Source: Candidatus Dormiibacterota bacterium (GTDB lineage: Bacteria > Chloroflexota > Dormibacteria > Aeolococcales > Aeolococcaceae). Taken from it: DNA of 58,702 nt. The stretch lies in the NCBI GenBank assembly GCA_036276135.1, contig DATBEL010000002.1:1-58702 (forward strand), read 5' to 3'. The notes below the pieces were generated by a model that made no database searches, was not told the DNA's origin, and saw only the letters and a list, made by a program, of their open reading frames with translations. Of this stretch, positions 28,072 through 37,039 are shown one piece after another. A program made the position numbers and the translations under genes. Position 1 is the first letter of the stretch. Every line of letters begins with the position of its first letter.

Positions 28072-28488
28072 TCAGCTGCGCAGAAGTGTCTGGAAGAACT
28101 CGCGATATCTCTGCAGCGTCTGGCGCAGATCTTCGGTGGACACGTCTTTGCCCCCTGACCAGGCCACCTCCAGACGCTGACGTTCGTCGGCGAAGGTGCG
28201 TGCAAGCTCGCGGATCACCTCGGCCACGAGAGCGTCGGCCCGCTCGACGGCTTGCCGCGGCTCATCGACAAAGGTTGCCTGGATGCCATTCCAACGCTCG
28301 ATGAACGCGCCACTGTCGCCGAGCAGACCCTCGGCACCGGCCCCCTCCGGCCGACCGGGGCCGTCCCCGGTATCAGTTGCGCCCCCGGTCGCGGACGGTG
28401 TCTCCACGGCCGGTTGCTGCGGCGGGCCTTGCGGAGGAGTGCCCGCCCCGCTTTCGGCGATCTGTTCGGTGGTGATCTGCTCTGTCAT
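28072..28488 (-). CDS. Hypothetical helical protein (soluble paralogue of 28485..29153)
   Basis: RWNGIQATFVDEPRQAVERADALV...STEDLRQTLQRYREFFQTLL. Confidence 0.85.
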   Translation of the reverse strand: MTEQITTEQIAESGAGTPPQGPPQQPAVETPSATGGATDTGDGPGRPEGAGAEGLLGDSGAFIERWNGIQATFVDEPRQAVERADALVAEVIRELARTFADERQRLEVAWSGGKDVSTEDLRQTLQRYREFFQTLLRS

Positions 28489-29153
28489 CGGTCACCTCCG
28501 GGTCCACGCGTGTCGGTGCCGACCGTCTGCGCAGGCGCCGGCGGCGGCGCGGTCGGCCCGGCGGAGTCGCGATCCGCACCCACGGCCTCGGGCTGGCGCG
28601 ACAGAGGCCGACGGGAGTCCGCAGCTCCGGCACCCAGCAGCTCCTCGAAGAGAGCTCGGTACTGGGTCATCGCGTTGCGCAGGTCCTCGGTGTTGGCGCT
28701 GCCCTGCGCGCTCTTCATGTAGACCTCGTGGGCGCCTCGGTAGTTCTCGACCACTGCGGGGTGGTCGACGGAGATGTCGGCGGCCCGCTGGTCGAACTCG
28801 GCGACGGGGTAGCCACGCTCGTTCATCACCCGCGCCACCAGGGTGTCGGCCTGCTGCACGCTCTGAACAGGCGCGTCGACGAAATGCGCCTGGACCTGCT
28901 GCCACTCGCTGAGATATTGCTGGCGTGTGGCTTCGCTGAGAGGCACGATGTTGAGCTCTTTGCGACGATCGACCCGGCCGGCGAGCTCCTTCTCAGCGTC
29001 GCGTTTGCTGCCACTGGTCTGAAGGGTGCGTTCGTACTCGGAACCAAACCTGCCCCGCAACTGGCTCGACCGCCTGCGGCTTGCGAGGGCCACGCCGATC
29101 AGGATCGCGAGGACGACCACGATGACGATCGCGACATACACGATGGTGGACAT
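28485..29153 (-). CDS. Hypothetical helical protein with N-terminal membrane anchor
   Basis: N-terminal TM then RFGSEYER; EWQQVQAHFVDAP...ADTLV...NTEDLRNAMTQYRALFEELL; ATGA overlap with next gene. Confidence 0.88.
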   Translation of the reverse strand: MSTIVYVAIVIVVVLAILIGVALASRRRSSQLRGRFGSEYERTLQTSGSKRDAEKELAGRVDRRKELNIVPLSEATRQQYLSEWQQVQAHFVDAPVQSVQQADTLVARVMNERGYPVAEFDQRAADISVDHPAVVENYRGAHEVYMKSAQGSANTEDLRNAMTQYRALFEELLGAGAADSRRPLSRQPEAVGADRDSAGPTAPPPAPAQTVGTDTRGPGGDR

Positions 29154-29330: not shown

Positions 29331-29633
29331 ATGTACGACAGCGAGGACCTGGCCGCGGCCGTGCGGCAGGCGGCCGCCGGCCTGAGCGCAGCCGCAGCCG
29401 CCGTCGGGCGGGTCCTGGAGTCGGTTGCCGACGCACTCGCACCCGAGGTGGAGACGCCGGCACCCCCGCGTCCAGCGGCCGCGGCGCGAAAGGCGCCGGT
29501 CAGCAAACGCACGTCAAGCGCCAGGTCATCGCGACCGCGAAAGAAGACGGCCTCCCCGAAGCCGGCGAGGACCCGGAGCGCGCCCGGCAAGCGCGCCGGG
29601 CGCACCACCCGTGGACGCCCCTCCTCCACCTGA
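29331..29633 (+). CDS. Small protein with Ala-rich helix and Lys/Arg-rich tail
   Basis: High GC3 codon pattern; basic low-complexity C-terminus; weak SD. Confidence 0.55.
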   Translation: MYDSEDLAAAVRQAAAGLSAAAAAVGRVLESVADALAPEVETPAPPRPAAAARKAPVSKRTSSARSSRPRKKTASPKPARTRSAPGKRAGRTTRGRPSST

Positions 29634-30012
29634 CGCCGACCTCAGTGCGCTGGCTGCATCTCTGCAGTCGGACGCGCGCGACTCGAGCGTCTTCTTTCGC
29701 GTCCTCTGTGCAACGCTCGAGGAGGCGCTGCCGCAGAACACCACGGTCGAGCGCGAGCACAGCGTTTTCAAGAAGAAGCGGCTGGCTCGCCGGGTCAGCG
29801 TCACCCTGGCGAGCGAGACCTTCGAGGCGCGGATGTCGGATGGTCGCGTCGTGTGCCGCCACATCCATGCGGTGCAGGGTGTCGGTGGCGGCCTTCCCTA
29901 CGCCAGGGAGGTGAGCATGCAGGGGTGGCTGGAGGCGCTCCTCGCCTGCATCGCGCAGGAGGCCACCACCAACTCCGCAGCCGCCGCTGCGCTGCGCTCG
30001 CTGACCACGTGA
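29611..30012 (+). CDS. Hypothetical alpha/beta protein (paralogue A of 30059..30451)
   Basis: DLSALAASLQSDA..VFF.VL...L...LP....EREHS.FKK...; aligns end to end with next ORF; GTG 29611 start inferred from the alignment. Confidence 0.8.
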   Translation: MDAPPPPDADLSALAASLQSDARDSSVFFRVLCATLEEALPQNTTVEREHSVFKKKRLARRVSVTLASETFEARMSDGRVVCRHIHAVQGVGGGLPYAREVSMQGWLEALLACIAQEATTNSAAAAALRSLTT

Positions 30013-30058: not shown

Positions 30059-30451
30059 ATGACCGACGTCTCGCCGCCAGAACAGGACCTCGACGCTCTC
30101 GCCGCGTCGATGCACGCGGACGCCAGTGACATCGGTGTCTTCTTCCAGGTCCTGGCCGCAAAGCTCAGCGACTCGATGCCGGGCAGCGTTGAATTGGAAC
30201 GCGAGCGGGGGCTGTTCAAGAAGGACCACCCGGTGAGAAAGCTGACCGTCCGCGCCGGCGACGACATCTTCGAGGCCGAGCTGCGCCAGGGCGCGGTGGC
30301 CACCCGGCACGCGCATGCGGTGCGGGGCATCACGTTGCGCTCCGAGGAGCTGGACTTCCAAGCGTGGCTGCGCGCGCTGCTCGGCGCCCTGCAGACCCGC
30401 GCTCGCAGCAGCGCGGACGCCAACGCCGCGCTCCGCTCCCTGGTCACCTGA
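30059..30451 (+). CDS. Hypothetical alpha/beta protein (paralogue B)
   Basis: DLDALAASMHADASDIGVFFQVL...HAVRGITLRSEELDFQAWLRALL...ALRSL. Confidence 0.85.
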   Translation: MTDVSPPEQDLDALAASMHADASDIGVFFQVLAAKLSDSMPGSVELERERGLFKKDHPVRKLTVRAGDDIFEAELRQGAVATRHAHAVRGITLRSEELDFQAWLRALLGALQTRARSSADANAALRSLVT

Positions 30452-30493: not shown

Positions 30494-31327
30494 ATGAGCC
30501 AGCTTCCACCGCCGCCGCCGCCGCAGGCTCCCGCCGAGCTCGAGGGACTGCCCAAGGATGCACTGCGCCGTCTCAGTGAGCTGCAGGGCAAGGACGCCCT
30601 GTTCACCTCCGACCTGTCGGTCAACGAGTTCCTGCTCATCAAGGAGGCTGGCTTTCATCCCCGCGGCCTGGTGGTGGGCAGCAGCATCTACCACATCGGG
30701 CTGACGACCAAGTCGTGGAGCTCGAGCCAGGAGGTGCAGTCCCTCACCCAGGCGATGTACGCCGCCCGCGAGCTGGCCATGACGCGCATGGAGGAGGAGG
30801 CCACCGTTCTCGACGCCGACGGTGTGGTCGGCGTGCGCCTCGACGTGGGCTTCTACGAGTGGGGTCGCGGCACCGCCGAGTTCCTCGCCATCGGCACCGC
30901 GGTTTCGGCAGAGGATGGCGGCAACTGGAAGACACCGGAGGGCAAGCCCTTCACCTCAGACCTCAGCGGCCAGGACTTCTGGACACTCCTGCAGTCCGGC
31001 CACGCCCCCCTCGGGCTGGTGCTCGGCACCTGTGTGTACCACGTCGCCCACCAGGGGATGTTCCAGGCCATGGGCAACATCGGCGCGAACAAGGAGATGG
31101 GCAACTTCACGCAGGCGCTGTACGAAGCGCGCGAGCTGGCCATGGAGCGCATGCAGGACGAGGCGCTCAAGCTGAAGGCCGAGGGCATCGTGGGTGTCCA
31201 GATCCAGGAGAAGTCCCACGTGTGGGGCAGCCACACCATCGAGTTCTTCGCCATGGGCACGGCGGTGCGCAAGCTTCCCGACCGCACCATCGAGACGCCG
31301 AAGCTGGTTCTCTCGCTGGATCGCTGA
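30494..31327 (+). CDS. Tandem YbjQ/UPF0145 (putative heavy-metal-binding) domain protein 1
   Basis: Two repeats of FTSDLS...G..P.GLV.G...YH...ARELAM.RM..EA....A.G[VI]VGV...EF.A.GTAV. Confidence 0.88.
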   Translation: MSQLPPPPPPQAPAELEGLPKDALRRLSELQGKDALFTSDLSVNEFLLIKEAGFHPRGLVVGSSIYHIGLTTKSWSSSQEVQSLTQAMYAARELAMTRMEEEATVLDADGVVGVRLDVGFYEWGRGTAEFLAIGTAVSAEDGGNWKTPEGKPFTSDLSGQDFWTLLQSGHAPLGLVLGTCVYHVAHQGMFQAMGNIGANKEMGNFTQALYEARELAMERMQDEALKLKAEGIVGVQIQEKSHVWGSHTIEFFAMGTAVRKLPDRTIETPKLVLSLDR

Positions 31328-32262
31328 TGGCCGATCCGAGCGCAGCTGCGCAGCGGCAACTGGAGAGCATCGCTGCGCTCGAGCGTGGCGAACTTCCCCT
31401 GGCGGCTCGCGACCGCATCGACCAGCTGCGCGGACCGGATGCGCCCTGGACGAGCGACCTGTCGGTCGCCGAGCTGGCCGCGGTGCGCCACGCGGGCTTC
31501 GAGCCAGTGGGGATGGTGATGGGATCGAGCGTGTTCCGCATCGCCGCACAGTGGGGATACAGCACCGTCTTCGGCGTCGGTGCGACCGGCGGCGCCATCC
31601 AGACCTACGCATGCCCGCACGGGTATGGCTACTACCGCGCCGGCCCTGACCACCGGTACGGCTACAACTGGGAACACACCGCGTACGAGCAGGGCGTCGT
31701 TGACGCCAGGGACCTGGCGCTGGCCCGGATCACCCAGGAAGCGCGCGACCTCGACGCGCACGGGGTGGTCGGCGTGCGCCTGGTGCGCCGGCATCTCGAG
31801 GGCGTGGGCAATGCGCTGGAGTTCACCGTCATCGGCACCGCCATCAGGCGCGCCGGCGGACCTCACCTCGACCGTCCCTTCATGTCACACCTCGACGGTG
31901 TGGCGTTCAGCAAGTTGATCCATGGCGGCTATGTGCCTGTCTGGTTGGTGATCGGCATCGGCGCGGTGGAGATCGACCCGGGTTGCGGCACTGAATGGCT
32001 GCTGCGCTCATGGAGCAACGTGCGCATCGACCAGGTGAGCGACGGCATCGAGGCAGCCCGGTTGCTGGGGATCAGCCGCCTCGAGGCCGAGATCGCCGCC
32101 GCGGATGCCGACGGCGCGGTGGGTGTTGACGTCGATTTCGCCACCCATGAGGTCAGCAACGGAGGCATCCTCGTCGAGCTGGTCTCCGTCGGCACCGCGG
32201 TGTGCCGCTACGCCAGGGATCCCCTCGACGAGGTCCCGCTGCCGATCATGAGGTTGCGTTGA
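31327..32262 (+). CDS. Tandem YbjQ/UPF0145 domain protein 2
   Basis: TGATG coupling; WTSDLSV...GFEPVGMVMGSSV...ARDLALARI..EAR.LDAHGVVGVRL...EFTVIGTA; second repeat FMSHLDG...ADGAVGV...ELVSVGTAV. Confidence 0.85.
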   Translation: MADPSAAAQRQLESIAALERGELPLAARDRIDQLRGPDAPWTSDLSVAELAAVRHAGFEPVGMVMGSSVFRIAAQWGYSTVFGVGATGGAIQTYACPHGYGYYRAGPDHRYGYNWEHTAYEQGVVDARDLALARITQEARDLDAHGVVGVRLVRRHLEGVGNALEFTVIGTAIRRAGGPHLDRPFMSHLDGVAFSKLIHGGYVPVWLVIGIGAVEIDPGCGTEWLLRSWSNVRIDQVSDGIEAARLLGISRLEAEIAAADADGAVGVDVDFATHEVSNGGILVELVSVGTAVCRYARDPLDEVPLPIMRLR

Positions 32263-33092
32263 TGACGGTGGCTGCGCATCCGCGGGCTGACGCTGCGCTC
32301 CACTGCCTGGCGACGGGCGGAGGCGAGCGCCACCAGGGGCGGCGTTTCAGCAGCGACCTCTCCGTCGACGAGGCGGTGCTGCTCAAGGAGATCGGCTACG
32401 AACCGCTCGGGCTGGTGGTGGGCAGCGGGGTGTATCACATCGGCTACCAGGTGCAGAGCTGGGGCAGCAACCAGGAGATGGCCGGCCTCACCGAGGTGAT
32501 GTACGCAGCGCGCACCGACGCCGTGCGCCGGATGGAGCGGCACGCGCACAGCATCGGCGGGCAGGGGGTCGTCGGCATGAAGCTCGACGTCCGCCTCGAC
32601 CGCGGCCGAGAGAATCTTGCTGAGTTCGTTGCCATCGGCACCGCCGTTGCCAACCCGACCGTGCGCTCCACCCGGCTGTGGTTGAGCGACCTGTCCGGAC
32701 AGGACCTGTACCTGCTCATCCGCGCCGGGTACGAGCCGATCGGGCTCGCTTTCGGCGCCTGCGTCTACCACATCGCTCACCAGGGCCTGTCGACGTGGCT
32801 CGGCCAGGCCACGCAGAACGTCGAGCTCGGTAACTACACCTCGGCCCTGTACGAGGCGCGCGAGCTGGCGATGACGCGCATGCAGGACGAGACGCGCGGC
32901 ACCGGAGCGCAGGGCATCGTGGCGATGCGCATCGAGCAGGCGTCGCACATCTGGGGCAGCCACATCATCGAGTTTCTCGCCATCGGCACCACCGTCGCGG
33001 TGGCGCAGTCGGGCCATCAAACGCTCGACCCCACAATGGTGCTGCCCCTCAACGATGCGGACATAGCCCTGACCGACGGCCCCACGCACTAG
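32262..33092 (+). CDS. Tandem YbjQ/UPF0145 domain protein 3
   Basis: TGATG coupling; FSSDLSVDE...GYEPLGLVVGSGVYH; WLSDLSGQD...ARELAMTRMQDE..AQGIVAMR...IEFLAIGTTV. Confidence 0.87.
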   Translation: MTVAAHPRADAALHCLATGGGERHQGRRFSSDLSVDEAVLLKEIGYEPLGLVVGSGVYHIGYQVQSWGSNQEMAGLTEVMYAARTDAVRRMERHAHSIGGQGVVGMKLDVRLDRGRENLAEFVAIGTAVANPTVRSTRLWLSDLSGQDLYLLIRAGYEPIGLAFGACVYHIAHQGLSTWLGQATQNVELGNYTSALYEARELAMTRMQDETRGTGAQGIVAMRIEQASHIWGSHIIEFLAIGTTVAVAQSGHQTLDPTMVLPLNDADIALTDGPTH

Positions 33093-33104: not shown

Positions 33105-34130
33105 TCAGGCGGGCTGGCCGATCCAGTTCTCCTCCTGGAGCATCGTCGTGACCTCGTCGAGTGACATGTCGTCACTCGGCAGGATGATCTCGCTGGCGGA
33201 CAGGTCCTCGTGGGCAAGCTGAGCCCCTGTGGATCTGACGAAGCCGCTCACCTCGGCAAGGGCAGTGTGGAAGGCGGCGTCGTCACCCGACCGCACCGCG
33301 TCGATGAGACGATGGTCGAAGGCATCGAGCTGCTGGCGAGCCGATTCGGGAAGCCGGTACTGCTCTGCGCCGTGGATGCGCACGACGATGCCGCCGGCGG
33401 CCAGGGCGGGGGCGGTTGGCGGTGCGCTGAGGCCGAGCTGTGACTTCATCGCCGCGAGCTTGGCCTGGACGTTGCTGTCGACAACGGTGGCGGTGATCTT
33501 GTCGTCGAGCGCGTTGCCGCCACCGCCGAGCAGTGGTGCGTCGAGCACGCCGCTGTCGAGCAGCGAGTCGACCGCGTCGGCGTGCGCCTGCGAGCGCGCG
33601 ATCTTGTCCTGGGCGCGCTGCATCATCATCGCCGCGTCCGACGTGTGCTCGCCGATGCCGGCCAGCGTGTCACCGGCCGAGCTCGTCGCCTTCGACGCCT
33701 CGTACGAGGCCTTGAGCGTCTCCCGCTGGTTGGCAAAGGCCTGCACCCGTGCCTGGTATCGCTGAATGCCGGCCTGCAGCTTGGTGACCTGGGCTGAGAT
33801 CGACTGGATCTGCGGGTCGAGCTGCTGACGCTGCTGGCCGAGCACCTCCGCCTGGGTCAGCGCCTGGGTGGCCAGGTCCTCCTTGCCGGACTGCATTGCC
33901 TGCTGCGCCGCCCCGTTGAGCTGGGCAACGCGCTTGTCCATCTCGGCGGCCTGGTTCTCCAGCCGCTTCTGCCCGGTGGTCGCCTCGACAAGCGCCGTGC
34001 GCAGCTTCTGCTGCTGTTCGAGCAACTGCTGGTAGGAGAGGTCGATCGCCTGCGAAGGATCCTCGAGCCGGTCGAGAGCGGCATTGCTCTTCTGCTGGAA
34101 GATGTTGCTGAAGCGTCGGAACACGCTCAT
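33105..34130 (-). CDS. pspA: PspA/IM30 (ESCRT-III-like) protein fused to a C-terminal PspAA-like domain
   Basis: N-terminal FRRFSNIF..KSNAALDRLEDP; long coiled coil; EDLATQAL; C-terminal IVVRIHGAEQYRL...LD.FD..L..AV.SGD..AF...SEIILPSDD. Confidence 0.88.
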   Translation of the reverse strand: MSVFRRFSNIFQQKSNAALDRLEDPSQAIDLSYQQLLEQQQKLRTALVEATTGQKRLENQAAEMDKRVAQLNGAAQQAMQSGKEDLATQALTQAEVLGQQRQQLDPQIQSISAQVTKLQAGIQRYQARVQAFANQRETLKASYEASKATSSAGDTLAGIGEHTSDAAMMMQRAQDKIARSQAHADAVDSLLDSGVLDAPLLGGGGNALDDKITATVVDSNVQAKLAAMKSQLGLSAPPTAPALAAGGIVVRIHGAEQYRLPESARQQLDAFDHRLIDAVRSGDDAAFHTALAEVSGFVRSTGAQLAHEDLSASEIILPSDDMSLDEVTTMLQEENWIGQPA

Positions 34131-34232
34131 CGAGTGCCTCCTTGCCGTCGGACCCTGCGGTGCACGGGTCGCGCCCGATTCTAGACGCCCCCGGTGAGCG
34201 AGCCGCTGGGGCGTGAGCGCTGCGCCGCAGGA

Positions 34233-34646
34233 CTACCCCGCCGTCAGCCCCTCTCCAGAGAGCTGGATGCCGATGTCGACCTGGTACCGCTCGAGGAACC
34301 CGCCGATCACGTCGCGTGTCCCCGACATCTCATCGGCCAGCAGCTCGAGCGCGGCGCGGCCGCTCTGGGTGATGTCGTAGCGGCGTCGCCTCGGTCCCTC
34401 CGCGGACCTCTCCCAGGACGAGACGACCAGCCCCTCCTCCTCCATGTTGTTGAGGGCGCGGTAGACAGTCCCCATGTCCCGCGGTTTGGCAGAGATCGGC
34501 GCCAGCTTCTCGCGCAGCTCGTACCCGTAGGCCGGCTCCTCGACGAGGAGAAGAAGCAGGCAGGGGCGCAGGAACTTCTTCGGCCGCGGGTGGCCGTGAA
34601 TGCTCTCGGCGCCGCCGGGGGACGATCCGTTGTGATGAGCCACCAC
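34233..34646 (-). CDS. PadR family transcriptional regulator (PhaQ-like subgroup)
   Basis: FLRPCLLLLL.EEPAYGYEL; GTVYRAL..ME.EGLV.S.W....GP.RR.Y.IT..G. Confidence 0.9.
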   Translation of the reverse strand: MVAHHNGSSPGGAESIHGHPRPKKFLRPCLLLLLVEEPAYGYELREKLAPISAKPRDMGTVYRALNNMEEEGLVVSSWERSAEGPRRRRYDITQSGRAALELLADEMSGTRDVIGGFLERYQVDIGIQLSGEGLTAG

Positions 34647-34727: not shown

Positions 34728-35870
34728 TCAGCAGATCCGTGGCAGGGGATCGCCGATCAGCATGTCGACGACGCGGGTGCCGCCGAAGCCCGTGCGGATG
34801 AACACCATGCCGTCGGGCTCCGGCCTGACCTCGCCGATGATGGCCGCCTCGTGGCCCTCGGAACGCGAGCGCATCAGGTCCAGGGCGCGATCGGCATCTC
34901 CCGCTGCCATCAGCGCCACAAGCTTGCCCTCGTTGGCGATGTAGAGCGGGTCGATGCCGAGGATCTCGGCGACGCCGCGCACCTCGTCGTGCACCGGCAG
35001 CGCGTCCTCATCGATGGCGATGGCGACCCCGGCCTGCTGAGCGATCTCGTTGAGCACCGTGGCGACCCCGCCGCGGGTCGCGTCACGCATGAAGTGGACG
35101 TCGATCCCCGCGTCGAGAAGCGCCGCAACAAGGCCGTGCAGGGGCATCGTGTCGCTCCGCAATTGGTCGGCTTCGAGGTCGACGTCGCCGCGTGCGAGCA
35201 TGACGGTGGCGCCGTGGTCGCCCATGGCGCCACTGAGCAGCACGGCGTCGCCCGGCGCAATGCGAGCGATGCCCAGCCTCTCCGGCTCTCTGACAAGGCC
35301 GATGCCGGTGGTGGTGATGAACAGCTGGTCGGCCTTGCCCCGCGGCACCACCTTGGTGTCGCCGGTGACCACGCTGACCCCCGCCGCATCCGCCGCGCGA
35401 CGCATCGACTCCACCACCCTGCGAAGGACGCCGATCTCCAGCCCCTCCTCCAGGATGAATGCGGCCGAGACGGCCAGGGGTGTGGCGCCGCCGACGGCGA
35501 GGTCGTTGACGGTGCCATTGATGGCGAGCTCGCCGATGTCGCCGCCGGCAAAGAACAACGGGCTGACCACGAACGAGTCGGTGGTCATGGCGATGCGTGC
35601 GTCGGTCAGCCCGGGGATGCTGAACACCGCCTGGTCACCGAGCTCGGCCAGGACGGGATTGTCGAGGATGCTCGCGAAGACGGCACCGGTCAGCGTGTGA
35701 CTCGCCTTGCCGCCGGCGCCGTGGCTCATGGTGATCGCTGTCTCGCGCAGCAATGGCTTGCGCTTGCGTATCTCCGCGATCCGCTCCAGCACACGCTGTT
35801 CGGGGTCGGCGATGCGCGCCGCCGCCGCCCTGACAGCTGCGCCGCTGCCGGGGGCGGGCTCGTCCGTCAT
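34728..35870 (-). CDS. hypE: Hydrogenase maturation protein HypE
   Basis: MSHGAGG; TTDSFVVSPLFFAGGDIGELAINGTVNDLA; RDATRGG; C-terminal PLPRIC. Confidence 0.97.
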   Translation of the reverse strand: MTDEPAPGSGAAVRAAAARIADPEQRVLERIAEIRKRKPLLRETAITMSHGAGGKASHTLTGAVFASILDNPVLAELGDQAVFSIPGLTDARIAMTTDSFVVSPLFFAGGDIGELAINGTVNDLAVGGATPLAVSAAFILEEGLEIGVLRRVVESMRRAADAAGVSVVTGDTKVVPRGKADQLFITTTGIGLVREPERLGIARIAPGDAVLLSGAMGDHGATVMLARGDVDLEADQLRSDTMPLHGLVAALLDAGIDVHFMRDATRGGVATVLNEIAQQAGVAIAIDEDALPVHDEVRGVAEILGIDPLYIANEGKLVALMAAGDADRALDLMRSRSEGHEAAIIGEVRPEPDGMVFIRTGFGGTRVVDMLIGDPLPRIC

Positions 35871-37039
35871 CCGGCCCGAACAGCGATCGGGGTGATGGCT
35901 GGTTCGGCTTCCCCGTTGGCGAGTACGCGCTCCCTGTCCCGCGCGCGCGAATAGCGTCCGAAGTTGTAGTACGCAGCGCAGGCGCCTTCGGAGGACACCA
36001 TGCACGTTCCGATCGGGGTCTCGGGAGTGCACGCTGTGCCGAAAACCTTGCACTCCCAAGGCTTCAGCACCCCTTTGAGCACCTCACCGCACTGGCACGA
36101 CTTGGGGTCGGCGACGCGGATCCCCGGGACGGTGAACACGCGCTCGGCATCGAAGCCGGCGAAGTCGTCGTTGAGCTCGAGCGCGCTCTGGCTGATGAAG
36201 CCGAGCCCGCGCCATTCGAAGTGCGGGCGCACCTTGAACACCTTGGCCAGCACCTCCAGCGCCTTGGGGTTGCCGTCCTCGTGCACAACCCGCGTGTACT
36301 GGTTCTCCACCTCACAGCGGCCCTCGAGAACCTGCCTGATGACCATGTGGACACCCTGGAGGATGTCGAGCGGTTCGAATCCCACCACCACCACCGGCTT
36401 GGCGTAGGTGCGCGTGACGAACTCGTACGGGCGCACCCCGACAACGGTGGACACGTGGCCGGGGCCGAGGAACCCGTCCAGGCGCAGGTCCGGTGAGTCG
36501 AGGATGGCCTTCATCGGCGGGATGATGGTGACGTGGTTGCAGAACACAAAGAAGTTCCGGACACCCTCGGCCTTGGCGCGCAACAGGGTCAGCGCCGTCG
36601 ACGGGGCCGTGGTTTCGAAGCCGATGGCGTAGAACACCACCTGCTTGTCGGGGTTCTCGCGGGCGATCTTCAGCGAGTCGAGCGGGGAGTACACCATGCG
36701 CACGTCGGCGCCCGCTGCCTTGGCGTCGAGCAGGCTGCCGTCGCTGCCGGGAACGCGCATCAGGTCGCCGAAGCACGTGAAGATGACGTCGTTGTCCTTT
36801 GCCAGGGCGATGCCGTCATCGAGGCGGCCCATCGGGATGACGCACACCGGGCAGCCGGGGCCGTGCACCAGCTCGACGTTGCCGGGCAGCAGGTCCTCGA
36901 TCCCGTACTTGAAGATGGTGTGGGTGTGGCCGCCGCACACCTCCATGATCTTCCAGTGCCGGTCGCCCGCCTCGGCCGTGATCCGCGCTGCCAGCGAGCG
37001 CGCCAGGTCGGCGTCGCGGAACTCGTCGGCGAACTTCAT
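35867..37039 (-). CDS. hypD: Hydrogenase maturation protein HypD
   Basis: MEVCGGHTH; GPGCPVC; GFETTAP; PGHVS; C-terminal C.CG..C..FG..CTP..P.GTCMVSSEGAC. Confidence 0.98.
   Translation of the reverse strand: MKFADEFRDADLARSLAARITAEAGDRHWKIMEVCGGHTHTIFKYGIEDLLPGNVELVHGPGCPVCVIPMGRLDDGIALAKDNDVIFTCFGDLMRVPGSDGSLLDAKAAGADVRMVYSPLDSLKIARENPDKQVVFYAIGFETTAPSTALTLLRAKAEGVRNFFVFCNHVTIIPPMKAILDSPDLRLDGFLGPGHVSTVVGVRPYEFVTRTYAKPVVVVGFEPLDILQGVHMVIRQVLEGRCEVENQYTRVVHEDGNPKALEVLAKVFKVRPHFEWRGLGFISQSALELNDDFAGFDAERVFTVPGIRVADPKSCQCGEVLKGVLKPWECKVFGTACTPETPIGTCMVSSEGACAAYYNFGRYSRARDRERVLANGEAEPAITPIAVRAG

Follow-up and report, generated by a model that had tools for sequence, protein, structure and literature searches.

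Single-domain YbjQ proteins (UPF0145/DUF74) of about 100-110 aa are the structurally characterized relatives of the proteins described here. The PDB entries 1Y2I, 1VR4, and 2GTC hold five chains apiece, as expected from the statement in an initial sequence-only reading of this DNA that single-domain members are pentameric. The same reading described a family without demonstrated function, and the literature that we searched contained none. The nearest studied relative of the cassette reported below is a gene pair of Mycobacterium tuberculosis, Rv1762c/Rv1761c. Rv1762c is a gene of 789 bp that encodes two heavy-metal-binding/DUF74 domains (PMC9846648), and its product was consistently recurrent in nanocompartment preparations obtained by ultracentrifugation, according to the passages of PMC8635971 that name it. 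An Rv1762c::Tn mutant was moderately sensitive to H2O2 at pH 4.5 in a preprint (10.1101/2020.08.31.276014); the two main-text passages of the published paper naming Rv1762c do not mention this stress phenotype (PMC8635971). Overexpressed Rv1761c was located in the membrane fraction of Escherichia coli (PMC2396618). The idea that the locus is an undescribed system held for the multi-paralogue cassette, which is an undescribed variant within a known uncharacterized family, but its simpler relative Rv1762c/Rv1761c already has slight experimental data.

The window analyzed is a stretch of 58,702 nucleotides from a 2.18-Mb metagenome-assembled genome of Dormibacterota (contig DATBEL010000002.1). 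Its relevant features are the following:

29611..30012, plus strand: U1, one of two copies of the small partner and the first in order, ~133 aa if started at GTG 29611, 43% identical to U2.
30059..30451, plus strand: U2, small partner of 130 aa and predicted distant relative of DUF5073 (U homologues, AF2 model, hhalign).
30494..31327, plus strand: A, double-YbjQ protein of 277 aa, slow-evolving core (Pfam YbjQ_1 E 1.8e-23, two stretches).
31327..32262, plus strand: B, divergent double-YbjQ protein of 311 aa with a Gly/aromatic insert in the N-terminal domain (Pfam E 1.8e-13, N-terminal domain only).
32262..33092, plus strand: C, double-YbjQ protein of 276 aa, closest paralogue of A (Pfam E 5.9e-20, two stretches).
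33105..34130, minus strand: PspA_IM30 + PspAA fusion, associated but outside the core (Pfam E 5.5e-26 and E 5.6e-23).

The start of U1 is uncertain; GTG 29611 was used here, and the longest open reading frame begins at TTG 29425. The proposal of three consecutive genes coupled by TGATG was confirmed by the coordinates and by both junctions, at 31325-31329 (A/B) and 32260-32264 (B/C), where the stop codon and the following ATG share one base. The C and pspA genes are convergent, with stop codons 12 nt apart. A consensus scan found no promoter- or terminator-like sites inside the cassette, a result of little weight given the GC content of the genome. The genome has no YbjQ genes besides A, B, and C.

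All three proteins scored above the 23-bit cut-off of Pfam YbjQ_1 (PF01906), with 83.5 bits for A, 51.4 bits for B (in one stretch), and 72.2 bits for C. A six-frame scan of the whole genome with this model picked up five of the six YbjQ halves; the sixth, the C-terminal half of B, was recognized by alignment (27-34% identical to the other halves). The six domains align collinearly. The N-terminal domains of A and C are 54% identical, and so are their C-terminal domains (54%), while the two halves of one chain share 28-44%; for this reason the domain duplication is older than the gene triplication. Over their whole length A and C are 51% identical (E 7.9e-71). Judged by this E-value and by junctions that recur in most related loci, the relatedness of A, B, and C and their overlaps are far beyond chance.

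The AF2 model of A (pLDDT 86, pTM 0.78) has the same order of helices and strands in both halves. Its top Foldseek matches were 1Y2I, 1VR4, and 3QKB, all with a probability of 1.00 and target-normalized TM scores of 0.58-0.70, at only 15-27% identity. The predicted fold and the PF01906 scores thus bore out the YbjQ/UPF0145 pattern with two repeats per gene that had been read from the sequence. The cassette proteins have the HMM family and the predicted fold in common with single-domain YbjQ proteins (1Y2I, 1VR4, 2GTC, 3QKB), but they carry two domains per chain (277-311 aa in A and B, against about 100-110 aa), add an N-terminal helix and, in B, an insert of ~30 residues rich in Cys, His, Gly, and aromatic residues, and are encoded as three diverged paralogues with a partner in one overlapping operon. 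Such tandem-domain proteins form a subfamily of 2293 clusters at E<=1e-3 in a 50% representative library. At the level of fold, one of the two YbjQ domains in the A model also resembles the periplasmic domain of RcsF (2Y1B, 6T1W, 2L8Y; probability 0.98-1.00, target-normalized TM 0.50-0.64) at 18-22% identity. RcsF, however, is secreted and is a disulfide-containing lipoprotein of the outer membrane, and we claim neither homology nor a shared function.

The order U-A-B-C was found in about 60 of the 80 related loci, counting by tblastn labels, since GC3-based ORF calling missed some genes, B among them. The hosts are soil bacteria of the Dormibacterota and of the Acidimicrobiales (Actinomycetota); Solirubrobacteraceae have a shorter form, U-X-A. 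The overlaps are conserved as well. The A to B junction is -1 in 44 of 60 loci; of 57 B to C junctions, 43 are -4 and a further 9 are -1. Between U and the first YbjQ gene, a -4 (ATGA) overlap occurs in 46 of 75 loci. Hence the triplet is not a set of isolated single genes but is conserved and tightly overlapped, as the sequence-only reading had anticipated, and the conserved unit exceeds that triplet, as the small partner U also belongs to it (in about 77 of the 80 loci, the gene immediately before the first YbjQ gene encodes a U homologue).

No conserved flanking genes were found around the cassette in the 80 loci. The commonest neighbours, judged by eye, were enoyl-CoA hydratase, carboxyltransferase, SnoaL-like, CoA-transferase, thiolase, and FtsW/RodA genes; being lineage-specific and mutually unrelated, they were rejected as parts of the cassette. 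Other candidates in the window were also discarded. A link to hydrogenase was suggested by hypE and hypD, which lie downstream, ~1.6 kb from the cassette, but hyp genes are not recurrent in the 80 related loci. A PadR gene (34233-34646) was considered as a regulator; it had no match below E 0.01 in any related locus and is local to the present window, and PadR does not adjoin pspA in the Dormibacterota locus L018, a near relative with a 95% identical A. A minus-strand paralogue pair upstream (28072-29153) likewise had no match below E 0.01 in related loci. Three A-B and B-C fusion proteins of the representative library (P0121, P0204, P0217) were left unused, as frameshift or read-through artefacts seem to underlie their junctions.

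The two copies of the partner, U1 and U2, align over 128 aa (E 3e-35), and two close relatives, L018 and L022, also have the pair. U had no sequence match in Pfam, NCBIfam, or the PDB. The AF2 model of U2 (pLDDT 81) has a helix-helix, five strands, helix-helix layout, for which no solved match was obtained (best Foldseek E 0.07, TM 0.17; 2K3M was absent from the 50 matches listed). Pfam DUF5073 (PF16817) did not match any of 24 U members at E<=1, nor anything in the genome itself at E<=10, and an HMM of U did not match the DUF5073 genes of the genomes G222 or G287 at E<=10. The link between the two families surfaced only in a profile-profile comparison with a diverse partner alignment: hhalign of the U profile against DUF5073-like partners gave a probability of 95.8% (E 7.1e-9, 105 columns), and only 13.8% when a single sequence was used. 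The DUF5073-type partner profile in turn matches 2K3M/Rv1761c at E 7e-39. Genes of both types directly adjoin an A-type double-YbjQ gene, mostly with a start/stop overlap. By these profile comparisons U is a remote homologue of DUF5073 (Rv1761c, PDB 2K3M), too diverged from the Rv1761c family for a Pfam DUF5073 match.

The three YbjQ proteins have evolved at unequal rates. Cross-phylum identity is 65% for A (65-73% over the comparisons), 31% for B, and 34% for C. In the tree, the B clade is monophyletic (support 98/94), the C clade has a support of 100/100, and the double-YbjQ sequences of Mycobacteriales are basal to A+C. This topology places A, B, and C in separate, ancient clades. In each of them, the Dormibacterota sequences are sister to those of L027/L029, so the cassette is inherited as a block. 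The C-terminal domain of A has a Cys-x2-His-x2-His plus His-x4-His set (C180, H183, H186, H242, H247) that is invariant in A orthologues. These five residues are likewise kept in a naturally occurring protein in which U is fused to a double-YbjQ chain and whose gene stands alone (P0126/L101; hhalign probability 96%, E 1.7e-9). The set is lost in the C proteins of Actinomycetota and in X. The Gly/aromatic insert with a CPHG motif that had been noticed in gene 2 is indeed present: C96 and H98 (CPHG) as well as H145 are invariant in 62 B orthologues, C220 is conserved in 98%, and H109 in 94%. Some C-type relatives or variants have two predicted C-terminal transmembrane helices.

Of the 17 Mycobacteriales loci fetched, 12 have an A-type double-YbjQ gene that is immediately followed by a DUF5073-type gene (~127 aa), whose start overlaps the YbjQ stop (-1 or -4) in 10 of these 12. 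The A-type protein has 262 aa and is 47% identical to A (E 4e-77). We take L098/L099 to be the probable counterpart of Rv1762c, based on gene length, the adjacent Rv1761c orthologue, and the description in the literature. The Rv1762c/Rv1761c-type module and the cassette thus have in common an A-type double-YbjQ protein and a DUF5073-type small partner. In contrast to the cassette, the Mycobacteriales pair has one YbjQ gene instead of three, its partner is downstream rather than upstream, only three of the five Cys/His residues of A are kept (C180, H183, H247), and no pspA gene adjoins it. The existence of the Mycobacteriales partner with one A-type gene, of the U-X-A form of Solirubrobacteraceae, and of the single fused gene shows that the minimal unit is A plus a partner, and that B and C are accessory.

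Counting the present locus, 11 of 81 loci (10 of the 80 others) have a pspA gene at most 6 kb from the cassette, in three arrangements (convergent, divergent, and co-directional). The PspA encoded here is the only one of its genome, and the genomes checked have one or two pspA genes each; in G041, G042, G222, and G287 pspA is located away from the cassette. The PspA+PspAA fusion type of the present locus has been described among the ESCRT-III-like PspA stress systems (Popp et al., 2024; PMC11237479). Its adjacency to the cassette is confined to a minority of loci, with no known interaction, and YbjQ or UPF0145 occurs nowhere in the main text of that survey of phage shock proteins.

We propose that U1-U2-A-B-C constitute one operon whose products cooperate, most likely as a hetero-oligomer with a protective role under stress; we give this reading a probability of about 0.45. 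A hetero-oligomeric assembly is plausible. It would be a single high-molecular-weight complex, soluble or membrane-peripheral, with A as the invariant core contributing two YbjQ domains and, through the Cys/His set of its C-terminal domain, probably a metal or redox site. U would be a DUF5073-related adaptor that binds A. The old and faster-evolving paralogues B and C would modify the assembly, B by exposing its conserved CPHG-containing Gly/aromatic loop, and C possibly by being membrane-anchored in some lineages. YbjQ domains may form rings as in the single-domain pentamers, and a two-domain chain would then span two stacked rings. Protection would be exerted under oxidative, acid, or envelope stress, in some lineages jointly with the ESCRT-III-like PspA.

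Several observations point to this joint function or assembly of U, A, B, and C: their order is kept in two phyla while the flanks differ, the start/stop overlaps are conserved and a U+double-YbjQ fusion exists, three ancient clades are inherited as a block, and in Mycobacteriales a DUF5073-type gene, of the family to which U is related, overlaps the A-type gene. The core role of A is suggested by its highest cross-phylum identity and by the invariance of its Cys/His residues in both A and the fusion. The presence of Rv1762c in nanocompartment preparations and the H2O2 sensitivity at pH 4.5 reported in the preprint are consistent with a large particle and a stress role. A link to the membrane is suggested by the adjacency of pspA despite only one or two copies per genome, by the transmembrane helices of C-type proteins, and by the location of Rv1761c in the membrane fraction. 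Against the proposal, six domains cannot tile a five-fold ring in a simple way, so any ring model needs a different stoichiometry; few loci have an adjacent pspA; the Cys/His set is lost in Actinomycetota C proteins and in X and reduced to three residues in Mycobacteriales; the stress phenotype comes from the preprint; and U lacks a match to any solved fold. It is improbable that U and the three paralogues form a self-assembling multi-ring or cage-like particle with a Cys/His metal or redox centre in A, and that this particle serves PspA as a partner or sensor when membranes are repaired under oxidative or acid stress. If true, this would also account for the sedimentation of M. tuberculosis Rv1762c together with nanocompartments.

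The operon could also reflect nothing but tandem duplication and co-regulation, with A, B, and C as independent homo-oligomeric isoforms that each build their own YbjQ ring, perhaps for differing ligands or conditions. The solved single-domain proteins form homo-oligomers, each entry having five copies of one chain, and lineages with just one or two double-YbjQ genes imply that A can work without B and C. We nevertheless consider independent isoforms unlikely, because the ancient clades have been kept together in a fixed order with overlapping junctions in two phyla, and the unequal rates and the loss of Cys/His residues in C and X fit differing subunit roles better. The Cys/His residues that are invariant in A (C180, H183, H186, H242, H247) and in B (C96, H98, H145) could belong to cytoplasmic proteins for metal binding, buffering, or metallochaperone activity with no link to membrane stress, as the Pfam/NCBI name "heavy metal-binding domain" and the hydrogenase maturation genes hypE/hypD about 1.6 kb away in the window would suggest. 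That label is a structural guess, and neither a metal transporter, nor a metal regulator, nor a hyp gene is recurrent beside the cassette in the 80 loci, the hyp genes being specific to this window; a role restricted to metals is distinctly unlikely.

A keeps an extremely high identity between phyla (65-73%) and has polar and His residues that never vary, as is usual for active or ligand-binding sites, and the YbjQ fold is, we assume, grouped with the dodecin-like folds in SCOP. Small-molecule-binding regulators or enzymes with ligand sites at the YbjQ subunit interfaces, and with U as a regulatory subunit, are nonetheless quite improbable, as no conserved metabolic neighbour hints at a substrate and the Foldseek matches of the A model include no ligand-bound YbjQ structure. 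Most improbable of all is a role of the proteins as cargo or accessory parts in an encapsulin nanocompartment. This would account for the consistent presence of Rv1762c in the M. tuberculosis nanocompartment fraction, with Cfp29/DyP particles, in the passages of PMC8635971 concerned, and a Linocin_M18 encapsulin is encoded in both Mycobacteriales genomes and in G041. But in a search that covered family-1 encapsulins, Linocin_M18 (PF04454) was found in none of 10 Dormibacterota genomes, all with double-YbjQ genes, and in only one of four Actinomycetota genomes with the cassette (absent in three), and an independent large particle explains the co-sedimentation in the ultracentrifuge equally well.

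YbjQ/UPF0145 proteins are widespread and their structures were released in 2005-2011, yet the family is still without a demonstrated function. The cassette makes this function testable, as it provides defined co-inherited subunits, a minimal unit of A plus a DUF5073-type partner that also exists as a natural fusion, and a short list of invariant Cys and His residues for mutation. Two functional leads come with it: the adjacency of pspA, and a relative in M. tuberculosis that co-sediments with large particles and is, according to the preprint, mildly sensitive to peroxide and acid when disrupted. If the cassette does encode a new protein particle linked to membrane repair, it would be relevant to the fields of bacterial stress, ESCRT-III, and mycobacteria; if it does not, it is still a well-delimited conserved operon.

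The window DNA is high in GC, its closest protein matches are from Candidatus Dormibacter or Dormibacterota MAGs, and the source assembly comprises 2.18 Mb in 120 contigs (86% complete). The sequence-only reading had described three consecutive genes (A, B, and C) joined by TGATG overlaps, each with two YbjQ repeats. The coordinates (30494–33092) and the DNA itself bear this out: TGATG lies at 31325–31329 (A/B) and 32260–32264 (B/C), so that at both junctions the stop codon and the next ATG have one base in common. In the search with Pfam YbjQ_1 (PF01906) that the same reading had proposed, all three products exceeded the cut-off of 23 bits, and no match was found outside them in the whole window genome. 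The genes discussed here are:

29611–30012 (core), upstream of A: U1, small partner gene, paralogue of U2
30059–30451, upstream of A: U2, small partner gene, paralogue of U1
30494–31327, same strand as B and C: A, YbjQ_1 83.5 bits in two stretches
31327–32262, same strand as A and C: B, YbjQ_1 51.4 bits in one stretch
32262–33092, same strand as A and B: C, YbjQ_1 72.2 bits in two stretches
33105–34130, minus strand: PspA_IM30+PspAA fusion, ending 12 nt from the C stop codon

Cutting A, B, and C at the repeated [FW]-x-S-[DH]-L motif gave six domains that align collinearly, and the Gly/aromatic insert with CPHG noticed earlier in the second gene is located in the N-terminal domain of B. The N-terminal domains of A and C are 54% identical, as are their C-terminal domains, whereas the two halves of the same chain share 28%–44%, which indicates that the domain duplication predates the gene triplication.

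Scanning a single genome for each species gave at least 578 related stretches, and the best 80 of these were labelled by tblastn with the window's proteins. Among these 80, the order U-A-B-C, where U is the partner family of U1 and U2, was present in 60 loci (Dormibacterota, Acidimicrobiales, and MAGs labelled only Actinomycetes), and in three more the middle gene was ambiguously labelled. Fourteen had a U-X-A form with two double-YbjQ genes only, nearly all in Solirubrobacteraceae or Solirubrobacterales; the last three were incomplete at contig ends. The A-B-C triplet occurs in 11 of the 19 MAGs of the window's own genus, and a two-gene form in a sister family. The claim of a three-gene operon stood as regards A-B-C, but the conserved unit is larger and includes U. 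In the best 80 loci, overlaps were conserved at every junction: −1 nt between A and B in 44 of 60, −4 nt between B and C in 43 of 57 (−1 nt in nine more), and −4 nt between U and the first YbjQ gene in 46 of 75. Instead of this usual overlap, the window has a gap of 42 nt between U2 and A. When the ORFs flanking these loci were clustered, no family extended beyond single lineages, and the commonest neighbors are, by eye, genes of metabolism or the cell wall with no relation to one another. This marks the cassette as self-contained and portable.

A maximum-likelihood tree of 55 sequences resolved B (support 98/94) and C (100/100) as clades, with A as a short-branched group beside C, the Solirubrobacteraceae X gene sister to B (98/90), and the Mycobacteriales and fusion sequences basal to A+C. 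In the A, B, and C clades alike, Dormibacterota is sister to a small Actinomycetota group (L027, L029), so the cassette was inherited or transferred as a block. Mean identity between the window protein and the other Actinomycetota orthologues (L030–L097) was 65% for A, 31% for B, and 34% for C. C180, H183, H186, H242, and H247 are invariant or nearly so among A orthologues, and all belong to two motifs of the C-terminal domain, GTCVYHxAH and KSHxWGSH. The Dormibacterota C protein keeps all five, Mycobacteriales proteins keep C180, H183, and H247, and the set is lost in Actinomycetota C proteins and X. In B, C96, H98, and H145 are invariant, with C220 98% and H109 94% conserved. Beyond a co-assembled module, plain metal binding or a ligand-binding regulator or enzyme are rival explanations of the cassette. 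Outside the cassette, the Actinomycetota genomes of L033, L096, L027, and L043 (G041–G044) each encode a canonical single-domain YbjQ that Pfam matches over its full length (E 1e-31 to 1e-35); such a gene is absent from the window's Dormibacterota genome.

The AF2 model of A (30494–31324; 43-sequence alignment; pLDDT 86, pTM 0.78) has an N-terminal helix followed by two repeats with identical helix and strand order. Its best Foldseek matches in the PDB were the YbjQ structures 1Y2I, 1VR4, and 3QKB (probability 1.00, target-normalised TM 0.58–0.70). The next specific matches were to the periplasmic domain of the envelope-stress lipoprotein RcsF (2Y1B, 6T1W, 2L8Y; probability 0.98–1.00, TM 0.50–0.64 to target), a fold-level likeness that probably reflects just a shared small alpha/beta fold. 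The U2 model (pLDDT 81, pTM 0.71) has two helices, a five-strand meander, and two helices, and no significant PDB fold match (best E 0.07, TM 0.17).

U1 and U2 are 43% identical (E 3e-35). Both copies are also present in L018 and L022, two close Dormibacterota relatives, and a single copy is usual at the other loci; the duplication is genus-specific. A 100-aa ORF, possibly a gene (29331–29633, plus strand), is Ala-rich at its N-terminus, ends in a very basic Ser/Arg/Lys/Pro tail, and shares 23 nt with U1 as counted from the probable GTG start of the latter; the U1 frame is also open farther upstream, to a TTG at 29425.

U had no match in Pfam, NCBIfam, or PDB sequences. Pfam DUF5073 (PF16817) had none in the window genome at E ≤ 10, nor did the U HMM match the DUF5073 genes of two Actinomycetota genomes (G222, G287) at E ≤ 10. 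We scanned 401 Actinomycetota genomes, followed by 201 from the order of G222, which we take to be Mycobacteriales, and the two scans together yielded 17 loci of DUF5073 type at E ≤ 0.01. In 12 of them we extracted a small gene directly 3′ of an A-type double-YbjQ gene (44%–51% identical to A). Ten of these 12 small genes overlap the end of the YbjQ gene by 1 or 4 nt; the gaps in L105 (+40 nt) and L109 (+29 nt) are probably due to start-codon choice. The profile of the 12 partners matched PDB 2K3M (Rv1761c of M. tuberculosis) at E 6.8e-39 and, in hhalign, the U profile (probability 95.8%, E 7.1e-9, 105 columns); with a single sequence the probability was only 13.8%. Because U matches, profile to profile, partners that themselves match 2K3M, it is a distant DUF5073 relative below the Pfam family threshold. 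A second, divergent U-like gene (G044:C29:12502–12900), which the U profile matches at E 3e-10, lies on a contig lacking any YbjQ_1 match and is possibly an orphan member of the partner family.

The metagenomic protein P0126 (424 aa) is a natural fusion of U and double-YbjQ. The U profile aligns with its first 130 residues (probability 96.3%, E 1.7e-9), the remainder has all five Cys/His residues of A, and its gene stands alone between unrelated genes. Together, the DUF5073-type pairs, the kinship of U, and this fusion define A plus a U/DUF5073 partner as the minimal unit.

In M. tuberculosis, Rv1762c (789 bp) is described with two putative heavy-metal-binding (DUF74) domains (PMC9846648), and the RD152 region has a DUF5073 gene beside one for a protein with a heavy-metal-binding domain (PMC11449866). 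Rv1761c overexpressed in E. coli went to inclusion bodies and the membrane fraction (PMC2396618), and an Rv1762c::Tn mutant was reported to be moderately susceptible to H2O2 at pH 4.5 (preprint 10.1101/2020.08.31.276014). Rv1762c is consistently present in nanocompartment preparations obtained by ultracentrifugation (PMC8635971); encapsulin cargo is a further rival explanation. A family-1 encapsulin gene was, however, absent from all 10 Dormibacterota genomes searched, each with double-YbjQ genes, and from three of four Actinomycetota cassette genomes, so an independent large particle explains the co-sedimentation better than encapsulation.

The PspA fusion that adjoins the cassette is the sole PspA of the window genome. 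Among the 80 other loci, the best of at least 578, PspA was at most 6 kb from the cassette in 10. It is convergent and downstream in Dormibacterota (L018, L023, L024), divergent and directly upstream of U in L027–L029, and co-directional and directly upstream of U in L043, L050, L051, and L053. With one or two pspA copies per genome, three independent juxtapositions are unlikely to be due to chance, although pspA is absent nearby in most loci. The main text of a published survey of PSP partners does not mention YbjQ (PMC11237479). No transmembrane segment is predicted in U2 or A. Two C-type double-YbjQ representatives (P0155, P0194; L102:920–2275) have C-terminal extensions with two predicted transmembrane helices and would be membrane-anchored variants of the third gene. 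The start of the P0155 gene overlaps the end of a B-like gene (ATGA).

Other neighbors were also recorded. A PadR gene precedes the window's PspA fusion (both within 33105–34646, minus strand); L018, whose A is 95% identical, has the same fusion and lacks PadR, so this pairing is not conserved. Two adjacent, overlapping genes at 28072–29153 (minus strand; 222 and 138 aa, the former with a hydrophobic N-terminus by eye) share a domain of ~90 residues (33% identity, E 4e-13), with no solid Pfam match and no match below E 0.01 in the best 80 of at least 578 related loci. About 1.6 kb downstream of the cassette begin ORFs (34728–37039, minus strand) that by eye look like hypE and hypD, genes of hydrogenase maturation; this adjacency was not seen in those 80 loci.

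The YbjQ family and its M. tuberculosis member are known and uncharacterised. The tandem-domain cassette is apparently undescribed, both in the titles and abstracts of the YbjQ/UPF0145/PF01906 papers listed and in the main text of the PSP survey (PMC11237479). New here are the profile-level link of U to DUF5073 and 2K3M, the stand-alone fusion of U with double-YbjQ, the residue-level Cys/His table, the encapsulin-absence test, and the genus-specific U1/U2 duplication.

One co-assembled U-A-B-C module would best fit these comparisons; a rival is that A, B, and C are independent homo-oligomeric isoforms. That the products co-function or co-assemble is likely. By analogy with the YbjQ crystal entries, which have five chains each, the assembly may be of ring type. 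Six domains do not tile a five-fold ring, and if rings form, a two-domain chain spanning two stacked rings would be more natural. In such a module, A would be the constrained core with a predicted, probable metal or redox site, U its adaptor, and B and C accessory paralogues. A stress or membrane role is more tentative: from genomic association and sparse M. tuberculosis data, we hypothesize stress protection with a connection to PspA. Overall, a co-assembled module with a stress or membrane role is the best explanation of the cassette, at a probability of about 0.45.
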